Source: Eledone cirrhosa (taxonomy: Eukaryota). From it: 64,000 nt of DNA. This document shows, piece by piece, positions 7,702 through 59,217 of the stretch; position 1 is the stretch's first letter; each line of letters begins with the position of its first letter. The stretch lies in the NCBI GenBank assembly GCA_964016885.1, contig OZ024741.1, positions 171,864,001-171,928,000 of the forward strand, given 5' to 3'. Below the pieces are notes generated by a model. The model was not told the origin of the DNA and ran no database searches. It saw only the letters and a program-made list of their open reading frames with translations. The position numbers and the translations under genes were made by a program.

Positions 7702-8110
7702 ACAATATATTAATAAATGGAAACTATATTTATAAAACCATAATTATTTTATTATATATATTTCAAGGACAACCAAGGCAGTTTTGGTGCGCTTTCATCA
7801 GATAAAATACAAAATTTGTTTTATAAATGTTGACATACCCGTAGCAAAACAACCTTCAACCGTCAAGGTTGTTTTTCTATGGGAATGTCAACATTATAAA
7901 ACAAATTTTATATTTTATCTGATGAAAGCGCACCAAAACTGCCTTGGTTGCCCTTGAAATATATATAATAAAATAATTATGGTTTTATAAATATAGTTTC
8001 CATTTATTAATACATTGAATATTTACTCCAGTAAACTGTTGAGTGCTTTATATCAGTTATAAAACTTTTAAGCTTGTTGAATCCCAACAAATTAAATATA
8101 ACTTCTGCAT
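7702..8110. mobile_element. Penelope-type pseudo-LTR fold-back element, family A, in (TA)n
   Basis: ~155-bp inverted arms (7703-~7856 / ~7862-8017) plus an unpaired 3' tail to 8110; each arm holds a hammerhead. Confidence 0.8.
7911..7975 (+). ncRNA. Minimal type-I hammerhead ribozyme (family A); mirror copy at 7745-7809 (-)
   Basis: TATTTTAT-CTGATGA-stem II (AAGCGCACCAA/TTGGTTGCCCTT)-GAAA-TATATA-TA-ATAAAATA: 8-bp stem I, intact core, palindromic stem III, AUA cleavage triplet. Confidence 0.85.
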
Positions 8111-11100
8111 ATATATATATATAATAGTTTTAACCTCCACTTTCCATGCTAGCAAGGGGTGGACAGGCCCATACCGACCAAGTCAGTATTGAAGCAGAGC
8201 CACTTATCTCCCAGACAGGCCAGAAATTGTGTGCTTATGTACGGTCTCACATTCCATTGAGTATTCAGGAAAGGTTGTCATACCTTTGACACAACTGAGA
8301 GTCGTCCCAACCCTTTGTTTAGCAAGTTTTCTATGGGTGGATGCCCTTCCTATCACCAACCACTGTACAATGTGTACTGGATCTGTTTATCATGTAAATC
8401 ACCAACACTAGGGAGGTTATTATACCCTTATCATGGCTAGAGGGTCTTCTCAACTCTTTGTCTGGTAAGTTTTCTATGACTGGATACCCTTCCTATCATC
8501 AACCACTTTACAGCATGTACTGGGAGTGTTTAGTATTTAAATCACAAACACTAGGGAAGCTGTCATGCCCTTGACATGGCTGAAGGGTCCTCTCGGCCCT
8601 TTGTTTGGTTGCTTGGCATTCTCTCCATGGAAGGGTGTTAATTTGTCAGGAATATGTGTGTGCTGTGGGGGAGGTTGAAGCAGTGAAGTTGATAATAACT
8701 GTTAGTGAGTGCTAGTTGAGGGAGAGAGGGAGTCAGGTCATATTGTAAGCTGCAGATAGGGTCTTCTTCAGCACTGCATTGGGCCAGCTTTGCAGTTTTT
8801 AGTCATTTCTGTTGTAAGGTTTAGCTTTCTAAGATCTGTCCTTAAAATCACATCCCTTGACTTCCTATGTCTGCTTCTTTCACGAGTCCAAAGCATTAGG
8901 GTTTCGGTGCATTTTTATGTAGCTGCTATCTTCAATGCACATCACATGGCTATACCAATACAGTCTTCTCTCTTATACCAAGTGTTTGTTAATTCGATTG
9001 ATGATTGGTGATTGAACCGAATCAATAGAATGAATATAAACATTATATACTGGAATTTATCATCAAACGACCGAATAAAGGAATTCTTTCTATGAGTGAC
9101 TACATTTATTATTTGCATTATATATGTACATGATATTAGTTGTTTCTGAACTAGATACATGAAAGAGACTTTTATATATAATAGATATCTTTCCACATGA
9201 GTGTACAAAAATGGGACATTACAAGACGTGACGGCAGAGGTTTTACATAAAAATCATATAAGTTTAACATGAATAAATGACAATAAATTATATATAATAA
9301 AATAACAATTGAAGTCCCCAATAGGAGGGAACATTACTGCAGGGTTGTTTTACACCCTATGGATAGAACAACCCTCAAGACCAGGAACACATTTTGTAGG
9401 TGTTCTCGTCTTCCCTCTTTTTATCTTCTTCAACATACAGGTTTATATACAGAGAAGGCCCATTCATAGATAGATAGATTTATATATATATATATATATA
9501 TATATATAAGTATATATATATATATATATATACGTACATACACATATGTATACAGACGTACAGTAGTATGTATATGTATATATATATATATATATATATA
9601 TATACATACATGCACACATATATATATGTACGTGCATATATATATGTGTGCATGTATGTATATATATATATATATATATATATACATACTACTGTACATC
9701 TGTATACATATGTGTATGTACGTATACATACTTATATTTAAGTAACAGCCGTACTAAGAGTGAGAAATGAAATTTCATTTCATATATATATAGATATAAT
9801 GCAAATGAGGTTGTCATTGGGAGATATGATATAGATTACATATAGGAACTAATGAATAAATATATATATTGACAGAATGAGTAGGTGTTTTAATTTAATC
9901 AAATAGTATTTATATGAGAATATCAACGTTCACAATATTAATTTGGTCAGCTAAATTTCCATTTTGCTGAAAATCATTTGACATTACTCTTCCTTGCTCT
10001 TCCACTTTAAAACAGCACAACCCAAGAAATGAAGCAATCATATGAAACCAATATACATACATATATATATATATATATACATATATACATATACATATAT
10101 ATATATATATATATATACATGAAATATAAGAATCAAAGTATAATTAATACTATATATATATATATATATATATATATATATATATATATATATATATATA
10201 TATATATATATATATATGTGTGTGTATGAAATATATATATATATATATATATCAATTTTCTGAATGAAAAGTATATGTTGTATATGTTGTAGTGCACCTG
10301 ATCTCTGTACACAATAATTTCATTATATATATATATATGAATATAATATATATATATATATGTATATATATATATACATATATATATACATATATATATG
10401 CATATATATATATATATATATATATATATATATAATAATTATATTTCCATTTAAATATAAATATAAATATATATATATATATATATATATATATATATAT
10501 ATATATATAATGGAAAAATTTGAACAGGGACAAAACAGAGAGGCAGTACAATGAATGTTTATTAATTTCACGCTCTGGAGAGTGGGGTGTTGGATATACA
10601 TATATATATACATATATATATACATATATATATGCATATATATATATATATATATATATATATATATATATATATATAATAATTATATTTCCATTTAAAT
10701 ATAAATATATATATATATATATTAATATTTATATTTAAATGGAAATATAATTATTATGACTCAATTTCGATGGTAAATGGACATTAAATTAATATCTATT
10801 CCTTTGAAATGAATATAGAGATACATATATATATATATATATATGTATATATATATATATAAGTATCTACATATATATATACATATGTATGTATGTATTT
10901 TGTATACATATATATATATACACACATGCATATATACATATATATACATATATCAATATATGTAAATATATGTGTAGATGTATATGTGTGTGTGTGTGTG
11001 TATGTGTATGTGCACATGCATATGTGTATGCACCTCCTATAATCTATATATCAAGCTATATGCTGCCTCTTGCACTACTGAGGGGTCATAAATTCTGTCA

Positions 11101-11377
11101 TAGACATGTTAGCATGAAAAATGGGATGTTAGATGATAATGAGAATACATATATATGAAGTGTTCATATTTCAAAACTGGGAAGATTACAAATAAACATG
11201 CAGACACATGCATACACACATGAAATAAAGCCTCTTGCTCAAGGACACAACACGCCACCGAGGATCAAACTCACAACCTTACATTTATGAGCTAAGTTCC
11301 CTAACCACTAAGCCATGCACCTTCACATATAAGTATATATATATATATATATATATATATATATACACACACACATG

Positions 11378-11705
11378 GAGGCACATGGCTTAGTGGTTAG
11401 AGCCTTGCAATCGAAAGGTTGTGAGTTCAATTCTCAGACCGGGTGATGTGTTGTTTCCTTGAGCAAGACACTTTATTTCACATTGCTCCAGTTTACTCAG
11501 CTGAGATAGGGATTGGGGTTCCTATCATTCCACTGCAAAGTGGTTGTGGAGGTGCCACGACAAAAAAAAGCACCCAGCACTCACTGTAAATGACGTTGGT
11601 GTTAGGAAGGGCATCCAGCTGTAGAAATCAAGCCAGAATCTGTTCCCGTCCCACCCTTGCAAGCAGGGAAAAGTGGACGTAAAATGAAATGATGATGATG
11701 ATGAC
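11378..11705 (+). mobile_element. tRNA-derived CORE-type SINE, family S2, with (GAT)n tail
   Basis: A box TGGCTTAGTGG, B box GAGTTCAATTC, CORE-like CCTTGAGCAAGACACTTTATTTCAC, 3' GGAAGGGCATCCAGCTGTAGAAA...GGACGTAAAATGAAATGATGAT. Sister copies at 38615-38948, 48668-49060 and 55594-56025. Confidence 0.85.
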
Positions 11706-11888
11706 ATGTATATATATACATATATATATACATATATATATATATATATATATATATACATATATATACATGTATATACATGTATATATATATATGTGTG
11801 TGTGTATATGTTAGTATACCCATACTCACATACACATGCGCACACACATATATATATACATCTATATCCATATATATATATATATATT

Positions 11889-57624: not shown

Positions 57625-57705
57625 TAAGGCTATAAAGTGAGTTTTGTTACTGTGGAGTTTCACCTCTTTATCACAGGGTCATCAGCCGTCAAAAACATAC
57701 GGATG
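57625..57705 (-). mobile_element. Family K pseudo-LTR fragment with hammerhead core (older copy ~30300-30400)
   Basis: Minus strand CTGATGA-CCCTGTGATAAAGAGGT-GAAA-CTCCACAG-TA; stem I is poor. Confidence 0.5.
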
Positions 57706-58152
57706 TATATTTATATATATATAAACACAACCCAGTATATTTTTGTCTCATCCATTCCTTCTTTGGCTTATATAAATTTATATATATATATATATATATA
57801 TATATATATATATATATATATATATATATGTGTGTGTGTGTGTGTGTGTGTGTGTGTGTGTATATACATATATATATATAAATTTATATAACTCACTTCT
57901 AGCCGCTGATTTCTATCCTTTGAGGTAATGTTTTACCCAACGTCGATTCGACGACATTCTACTGTTTTAACAGCTTCCTTAATCCGATATTGCACATATT
58001 CCTACGAATTCTTATATACTCGCGTCTCAAAACTCGTTGTTCCAGTTAATTTTGTTTATATATATATATATATATATATATATATATATATATATATATA
58101 TATATATATATATATATATATATATATATATATATATATATATATATATATA

Positions 58153-58455
58153 TCACAAAAAAAGACAATCAGCGTTGCGACGAATGGAATTTATTGGACA
58201 TATTACAATCGTTTCTCTGGTGACCAGCTCAGTTCGAGGCACGATCGATGTGATGATCGAACCTGGCTCTGAAAATCGCAAGGTCCTCAGATACGTCTTG
58301 ATTCTACGAAACAGATTTGGAAAATATGTCCAATAAATTCCATTCGTCGCAACACAGCTTCTCTTTTTTTTGTGATATTATACTCTGCTCTGTGAGACCA
58401 TCGAGTGCTCAAATGGCCTACCGCATACGGACGCTTTAAGCATCCAACACCAATT
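58153..58455. mobile_element. Fold-back family F element with intact hammerhead at 58197-58297 (-)
   Basis: GACGTAT-CTGAGGA-68 nt-GAAA-CGATTG-TA-ATATGTC (7-bp stem I); bulged hairpin at 58382-58406. Confidence 0.8.
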
Positions 58456-58707
58456 ATATATATATATAAAACAAAGAAAGTGTGATAGCAATCCATGTGG
58501 AGCATAACGCACCAGAGTAGTCGATACTTAGGGCAGTAGAGTGGGTCATAGGAAGTCATGGTTTAGTTCGGATCTAGCTGTCGGGGTCTTGACTGTATTC
58601 CTATATATATATATAAAATATATATATATATATATATATATATATATATATATATATATATATATATATATATATATATATATATATATATATATATATA
58701 TACACAC

Positions 58708-59217
58708 AGAGATATCCACGGTTAATTGTGGGGTCCAGTCTGTATGATGAACTCAATGTAATCTATATGTTGAAAATGTTGTAGGTTAAAATAAATCCCG
58801 GAAAACAATAAAACATTAAAAGGAAAACAGAGTCATGATATAAGTTAAAACAATGAAATAAAAAATCAAGTCATTAGAAATATACTTCACTGTTTACGAT
58901 CCTTTCTAGGTGATGATAATACATCGTAACTATACTTCGTCATCGATCTATGTAACGTTAGTTAGAAAATATCAGATAAGGAAAATATTTACTTACATGT
59001 ATATCACCAGCTGTTGTCAAAAGCAATGATTGCTTTTGACAACAGCTGGTGATATACATGTAAGTAAATATTTTCCTTATCTGATATTTTATAACTAACC
59101 TTACATAGATCGATAACGAAGTATAGTTACGATCTATTATCATCACCTAGAAACGATCGTAAAGCAGTGAAGTATATTTCTAATGACTTGATTTTTTATT
59201 TCATTGTTTTAACTTAT
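58708..59217. mobile_element. Fold-back family J element (~190-bp arms) with putative U3:A8 hammerhead at 59029-59168
   Basis: Arms centred at 59028; ATTGCTT-TTGACAA-107 nt-GAAA-CGATCG-TA-AAGCAGT. Confidence 0.7.

Follow-up and report, generated by a model that had tools for sequence, protein, structure and literature searches.

Among mobile elements, Penelope-like elements (PLEs) are telomerase's closest relatives. How they choose the start of reverse transcription and why their inverted copies carry a "tail" on one side are open questions (PMC8557442, PMC11167929). In a 64,000-nt stretch of the Eledone cirrhosa genome (the window: GCA_964016885.1, contig OZ024741.1, positions 171,864,001-171,928,000, forward strand), a first-pass annotation had reported 12 sites of a bulged hairpin with an ACTC/GAGT lower stem, which is GCTC/GAGC at one of them. 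We found that this hairpin occurs as a tandem pair between the hammerhead ribozyme and the start of the open reading frame (ORF) in loci of the Hydra clade of PLEs that were picked by protein, that its stem covaries, that copies of the elements end at two positions, just before hairpin 1 or just before hairpin 2, at a TA microhomology with the target, and that inverted insertions join a short and a long copy. It is a new, clade-wide paired cis signal in a known class of element. The annotation had correctly noticed a conserved motif; the tandem arrangement and the place just 3' of each copy end had escaped it.

Copy ends and the tandem pair

Copy ends were mapped in 1.26 Mb, comprising the window and 120 stretches of the same assembly (3.0 Gb, rich in AT microsatellites). 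The 3' ends lie approximately 0-7 nt before hairpin 1 (short copies) or hairpin 2 (long copies) and are joined to (TA)n. Across 12 families they were bimodal, and the short ends mostly fell 2-7 nt before ACTC, at a TA or TAT that merges with the target (TA)n. In a family chosen by protein, that of the truncated element at 54480 in the window (45 loci, 61 TA-flanked ends), 29 ends were short (25 at -4, 3 at -5 and 1 at -9 relative to the hairpin) and 29 were long (26 at +62 and 3 at +60), with the remaining 3 elsewhere. The ends bypass nearer TA dinucleotides, and their distance to the hairpin (0-7 nt) is tighter than that from the hammerhead cleavage site to the end (27-69 nt) or that to the ORF. 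Inverted pairs consisted of one short and one long copy in 42 of 45 cases in the 12 families, a count in which two related queries may share one pair, and in 13 of 14 cases in the 54480 family, together 55 of 59 (p 1.7e-12 against 50%).

The second hairpin was found in relatives, for which 83 of 120 listed were aligned and 78 metagenome loci and 15 genome-bin loci were fetched. Among 64 leaders of at least 150 nt from marine Hydra-clade loci, at least two hairpins were present in 26, one in 14 and none in 24; leaders with a hammerhead match had at least two in 23 of 32. The members of a pair are spaced 55-83 nt apart (median 62), and in most leaders hairpin 2 lies 34-71 nt before the ORF match. 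Control counts were 23 in 705 ORF windows and, for antisense leaders, 3 in 64. We also made 38 comparisons of a leader with a 3' copy, of which 16 were set aside at contig ends; 15 of the other 22 copies end no more than 4 nt from a hairpin start, some at hairpin 1 and some at hairpin 2, and 2 more end beside variant hairpins.

These pairs and end positions predict a hairpin 2 after the long end in the families of the window. In family F0 (the 21533 copy) it starts 3 nt past the long end, with 303 pattern matches against 0 for the reversed control, and the full hairpin is present in 8 of 8 loci. It likewise starts 3 nt past the long end in two copies of F1 (13396), and 6 nt past it in F4 (19623), with 240 matches. 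Patterns with a short gap had given 1 match in F3 (8025) and 4 in F4; wider gaps gave 2 and 240. In F11, hairpin 2 is present as a G-T variant. The PLE tail is the spacing between hairpin 1 and hairpin 2. That the tail stands on one side only is a known feature of PLEs (PMC8557442; PMC3846280), and the hairpin pair likely would explain this long-standing puzzle.

The hairpin, its covariation and its carriers

All 12 sites of the annotation were confirmed as described when we re-read the window. The loci picked by protein give the consensus RCTC-Y..R-TH-GAGY-RCT. A scan of the window for RCTC and its reverse complement with a T[TCA] bulge and at least 2 upper pairs found 22 matches against a mean of 4.05 (maximum 11) in 40 block-wise dinucleotide shuffles, and stricter forms gave 12 against 1.1 and 11 against 0.5, so the motif is not equally frequent in shuffled sequence. 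The matches are not independent, as 8025 clusters with 17080, 58382 clusters with 16016, and five belong to one family. The scan found 11 of the 12 sites, missing 30100-30126, where the first pair is G-T, and five matches look like chance (27658, 45500, 32068, 60460 and 16449). In the 1.26 Mb, ACTC stems with a T-H bulge numbered 93 against 19.7 in local shuffles (4.5-fold, rank 5 among tetramer stems) and GCTC stems 40 against 7.7 (4.7-fold, rank 4); the stems outranking them are GTAC, CACA and TATA. A looser scan of the same sequence gave 229 matches, in 28 clusters and many singletons, some of them chance, and in its main clusters the motif lies approximately 40-65 nt upstream of a (TA)n run. 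Cluster 15 of that scan and the match at 45500 were set aside as chance-like matches inside other sequence. The shuffle excess in the window and the 1.26 Mb, together with the leader controls, rules out a chance origin of the motif.

Because variable loops align poorly, pairing was assessed from sequence anchors and not by a covariance model. Anchoring on CTC and T-H-GAG only gave 106 hairpins in 43 of 57 families; the inner CTC/GAG is fixed by the anchor and uninformative on pairing. Pair 5 was Watson-Crick in 82 of 106 hairpins against 47 in shuffles that ignore the kinship of families (C-G 55, T-A 25), pair 6 in 49 of 86 against 25, and pair 7 in 39 of 58 against 16. Pair 1 in this set was G-C in 70, T-A in 4 and A-T in 3, and ACT follows directly in 74. 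Wobble at pair 5 favours the sense strand (T-G 6, C-A 1), and the flanks are AT-rich. A set for tree building, in which pair 1 was demanded, held hairpin 1 of 29 families (one other was dropped, having no long frame), with pair 5 T-A in 15, C-G in 13 and unpaired in 1. Double changes occur within supported clades, for example at pair 6 in L229/L259 and at pair 5 in L250 versus L223/L264. The covariation expected by the annotation is therefore present, both as upper pairs in excess of shuffles across 43 families and as compensatory changes. Although the families are related and the shuffle ignores this, the compensatory changes rule out shared ancestry without structure. In three marine loci (L267, L275, L276) the lower stem is TCTC/GAGA, compensatory at pair 1.

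The motif extends to other animals, where the annotation had suggested searching. Among the published Hydra consensi (PMC8557442 File S7, by eye) it is present in Hydra-2_Amil and Hydra-2_Ajap, from coral and sea cucumber, while Hydra-1_Ajap has it twice, approximately 60 nt apart. The match is a near one in Hydra-1_Crog and not clear in Hydra-1_Amil and Hydra-1_Obim. Six 9-mers compared with that supplement, where line breaks can hide matches, gave 4 matches among the 6 Hydra consensi; the 3 found elsewhere had no intact hairpin around them. The annotation did not recognise the hairpin as a named motif, and Rfam gave 0 matches at gathering score in four leader-bearing loci, and for the window the 150 listed of 265 Rfam matches are microRNA-type or other look-alikes on palindromes and microsatellites.

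By their reading frames, 7 of the 12 sites are the predicted 3' ends of truncated Hydra-clade PLEs. F0 (21533) and F3 (8025, 17080) are linked by read-through into the start of a Hydra-type ORF, F1 (13396) by both such read-through and an upstream endonuclease, and F4 (19623), F10b (58833) and F16 (51929) by an upstream endonuclease. The linked families are related, and the annotation's "unrelated families" does not hold. For the sites at 43351, 58382, 16016, 57389 and 30126 we found no link to a Hydra-type ORF in the 1.26 Mb, and they are assigned by shared anatomy only. Marks of the clade are RW[K/R], DKT, CxCX5C, a GIY-YIG endonuclease at the C terminus, a hammerhead and (TA)n insertion (PMC8557442). 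Here, the RWK-like N-terminal motif reads RRLRWRA in L200 (a longer copy of the 54480 family) and in F3, whose read-through copies continue into this ORF start, and RLRWR in F0, with R for K. DKT replaces DKG (SDKT in L200 and F0), and copies are inserted into (TA)n. CxCX5C with a C-terminal GIY-YIG was present in the 54480 family, the one in which it was looked for, as CSCRKLEAC at 54480-55031 and CSCRKPEAC in L200. The tree of relatives comprises only sequences found in this analysis. Separate non-autonomous families resembling short interspersed elements (SINEs) are ruled out for F0, F1, F3, F4, F10b and F16, all joined to Hydra-type ORFs. For annotation, the motif sets the true element boundaries, and among the short TA-flanked palindromic repeats of this genome that pass as "unknown", many are truncated Hydra-clade insertions.

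The sites and their partners in the window are as follows; 9 of the 12 sites have an inverted short partner there.

8025..8044, plus strand: hairpin 1 of family F3 (Hydra-clade PLE 3' end); the tail extends to a TA run 64 nt downstream
7919..7959, plus strand: hammerhead core, 65 nt upstream of the F3 hairpin 1 at 8025
7695..7955, minus strand: inverted short partner of the 8025 copy, with a hammerhead at 7761-7801; stops just before the hairpin position, in (TA)n
17080..17099, plus strand: hairpin 1 of an F3 subfamily; hammerhead at 16974-17015, inverted short partner ending near 16834
19623..19647, plus strand: hairpin 1 of family F4; the short partner stops near 19460, and hairpin 2 is present in read-through copies elsewhere
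41151..41175, minus strand: second F4 copy, absent from the first-pass annotation; short partner ends near 41442
21533..21556, plus strand: hairpin 1 of family F0, with a short partner that stops at 21422, 5 nt short of the place of the hairpin
27145, and on the minus strand 56130, 52339 and 25193: other F0 copies
13396..13441, plus strand: hairpin 1 of family F1, with a GCTC/GAGC lower stem; the short partner stops at 13298, and a second copy is at 17816
43333..43351, minus strand: hairpin 1 of family F2; hammerhead at 43395-43417, short partner ending near 43557
58382..58406, plus strand: hairpin of family F8; short partner ends near 58145
15992..16016, minus strand: hairpin of an F8 relative; short partner ends near 16314
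58751..58833, minus strand: long-loop hairpin 1 of family F10b; short partner ends near 59219
51890..51929, minus strand: hairpin 1 of family F16; hammerhead core at 52005-52041, without a partner in the window
57389..57438, plus strand: hairpin of family F13, 48 nt upstream of a TA run; partner not found
30100..30126, minus strand: hairpin with first pair G-T; partner not found, and a relative elsewhere has GCTC/GAGC
54480..55031, plus strand: GIY-YIG endonuclease end of a truncated Hydra-clade PLE, with a CxCX5C linker
55181..55245, plus strand: hammerhead (55181-55202) and short end of the 54480 copy, which stops just before the place of hairpin 1 in longer copies

The annotation had placed the hairpin downstream of the hammerhead. 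Full hammerhead folds occur in copies of F2, F3, F4, F7, F11 and F16. A canonical core is absent upstream in several families, among them F0, where 0 of 30 copies have one. The core is non-canonical in the F1 and F10b copies examined and also in F0 read-through copies, so in F0 the hairpin outlasts the ribozyme. Among 139 hammerhead folds in the 1.26 Mb, 25 have the motif downstream before the TA run, against 82 of 5000 random places, and 56 reach the TA run without it. Stem III of Hydra-clade hammerheads is often ACTC/GAGT (PMC8557442 File S2), the same letters as the lower stem of the hairpin. The hairpin differs from stem III in having a bulge and an upper stem and no preceding GAA, cleavage site or following stem I, and without the core context a part of the hammerhead is ruled out.

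The F0 copies keep stems I-III around their non-canonical core (L319, L322 and L324-L326 upstream of 1500; window 21422-21532), and F0 inversion junctions concentrate in the palindromic stem II, giving fold-back copies. F0 also forms head-to-tail arrays, with a 299-bp period (retrozyme-like) and with a period of approximately 3.53 kb (full-unit tandems), at G000 C2:356030079-356031907 and C1:437200339-437210966.

What the hairpins may do

We favour, at roughly two chances in three, the reading that each hairpin binds the reverse transcriptase (RT)-endonuclease on RNA and positions the RT start just 5' of itself, with the pair setting the two copy ends. The element's RT-endonuclease protein would bind the hairpin on RNA, and reverse transcription, with nicked (TA)n DNA as its primer, would begin in the UA-rich stretch immediately 5' of the hairpin. 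The template would be a read-through (tandem) transcript, and a single event, perhaps involving a protein dimer, would prime one strand of the cut target at each of the two hairpins; the long copy would consequently carry hairpin 1 and the spacer (the tail), and hairpin 2 would be seen only where a copy reads into the next unit. A role in RT start is likely, by analogy with the biochemistry of the Poseidon element PAc (PMC11167929). The annotation had proposed a cis RNA signal for recognition by RT or endonuclease, or for priming. A cis signal stands, on covariation and on coincidence with the copy ends; action at the RNA level on the RT is our inference, with a reading on DNA by the endonuclease keeping some probability. 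The motif does not act as a primer, since the DNA to which the copies are joined is target (TA)n.

We hold more tentatively, and with somewhat less than even confidence, that the pair is a two-hairpin RNA ruler that loads two RT-endonuclease protomers on one read-through RNA, so that both (TA)n strands are primed approximately 60 nt apart in one concerted reaction. If true, the pair would amount to programmed twin priming, with a single mechanism behind the inverted repeats of PLEs, their tail on one side and their requirement for tandem copies, and it would provide a portable cis signal for RNA-templated insertion.

Several observations weigh against the favoured reading. The short ends of F2 spread from -12 to -1. 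Copies with the tail only, which one RNA serving both primers should yield, are few (2 among 14 pairs in one family and 3 flagged in others), with no clear peak. Among the 24 leaders without a hairpin by the strict pattern, some have truncated or unrelated flanks and some have TCTC/GAGA, and not all are explained; 5 of the 22 metagenome ends match no hairpin, one of these being a read-through. Hairpin 2 of F3 is present only as 2 degenerate copies. In the 54480 family the long end is sharp, yet none of the 19 leaders examined (of 25 fetched) has a canonical hairpin 2, and the bulge of hairpin 1 is 1 nt. The hairpins folded alone are no better than shuffles (z -2.2 to +0.8) and are thermodynamically weak; by our reading the lower stem is present in the predicted fold for 7 of 12 sites. 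Finally, the motif is missing from a Neptune-like PLE of this genome that also has two ends (25 loci, by eye), which speaks against a general need for it. Past the long end in the 54480 family, L182:2830-2880 shows a 7-bp stem and what may be a variant with a longer bulge.

The main rival, which we consider unlikely, is that the GIY-YIG endonuclease reads the hairpins in single-stranded DNA and, when resolving the transposition intermediate, cuts at TA just 5' of them, so that the copy ends would be cut sites and not RT starts. The tail has been ascribed to endonuclease resolution (Craig 2021, PMC8557442), the D. virilis endonuclease required the tail for recognition, as cited in PMC11167929, and a TA at the junction suits cutting as well as priming. 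However, the ends of the PAc tail match RT start sites in vitro (PMC11167929), both copy ends are joined to target (TA)n, as expected from target priming, and the wobble at pair 5 leans, weakly, to the sense strand.

It is considerably less probable that the RNA is cleaved or terminated a few bases upstream under the direction of the hairpins, and that RT copies the two resulting 3' ends as in ordinary non-LTR priming. The same two classes of end would be expected, and the motif adjoins a known self-cleaving one, but this alone leaves the short and long pairing in 55 of 59 inverted pairs unexplained, PAc starts internally on unprocessed RNA (PMC11167929), and the motif has no ribozyme match in Rfam. 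We regard as very improbable a service in expression or packaging (a translation signal, part of a promoter, ribonucleoprotein assembly or RNA dimerisation), with ends nearby only through the AT-rich flanks; these flanks and the place of hairpin 2 shortly before the ORF fit it, but ends that are sharp at one base each (25 and 26), bypass nearer TA and keep closer to the hairpin than to the cleavage site or ORF do not. The weakest proposal derives the inverted copies from self-priming on an antisense template (proposed in PMC3846280), where the hairpin would act on the antisense strand. It draws on the palindromes at inversion junctions, also in F0, and on a lower stem self-complementary on both strands, but two outer ends at fixed places, each tied to a hairpin, do not follow from it, and the slight sense-strand wobble bias and the use of sense RNA by PAc (PMC11167929) oppose it.

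As a short motif conserved across distant marine hosts that predicts both copy ends within a few bases, the hairpin makes this open mechanism testable.

Known systems and further observations

Poseidon PAc is the closest comparison. In vitro, its RT begins at two internal sites, between which the tail lies; extension occurs on both target strands, there is no requirement for hammerhead cleavage, a dimer is predicted, and sense RNA is used (PMC11167929). The Hydra-clade elements resemble it in having two start or end sites downstream of the hammerhead, an optional tail, an AT-rich target, extension on both strands and a stem-loop nearby. They differ in that PAc has a single AC-rich stem-loop without a CTC/GAG stem, with a conserved motif, pair and covariation unreported in the parts covered, and a tail of 30-40 nt (PMC11167929), whereas the tail here is approximately 55-90 nt and lies before the ORF. 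For the Hydra clade itself, the Hydra section and File S2 of PMC8557442 describe the hammerhead only; the hairpin pair is undescribed in the covered passages and yet present in the consensi. Neither the motif nor paired hairpins are described in the covered parts of the PLE literature (PMC11167929, PMC8557442, PMC13282606, PMC4209133, PMC3846280, PMC6765202 and bioRxiv 10.64898/2026.07.22.740005), a scope that comprises neither subscription papers nor Repbase notes.

The 3'-tail stem-loops of stringent long interspersed elements (LINEs) and SINEs, such as those of UnaL2 (PMC1636434) and ZfL2 (PMC4176376), are likewise small, with a bulge or internal loop, near the RT start and thought to be read by the element protein, but stringent LINEs have one stem-loop, upstream of the start and copied into every insertion. 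Here there are two hairpins. Each lies downstream of its start, and a copy therefore lacks the one that sets its end. In twin priming of L1, both target strands prime and an inverted insertion results, with a variable second priming site; here, by contrast, structure fixes both sites, and the sequences of the two copies overlap.

A motif general to PLEs is unsupported, as the Neptune-like family and the PAc stem-loop both lack it. The Neptune-like PLE has DKG, a hammerhead and TA insertion, its Neptune label coming from motifs. It is young (L344-L368), with many open frames of 775 aa that are 97-99% identical, and has two 3' ends approximately 45 nt apart and a short AC-rich stem in the tail, a candidate end signal of its own.

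A protein search with the endonuclease only found nothing at 1e-10, and no relatives were found in viral contigs. Hydra-clade PLE contigs were present within bacterial genome bins from marine hosts (L279-L293), where eukaryotic contamination, from the host, is likely. In the window, 17329-17690 is a 178-nt inverted repeat (99%) with a hammerhead in each arm, an F3 relative with both arms apparently tail-less. An open frame of 923 aa at 44245-47016 (minus strand) belongs to a non-LTR retrotransposon that looks like R4/Dong; it encodes an RT and, at its C terminus, a restriction-like endonuclease, with (ATT)n/(TTA)n on its flanks.

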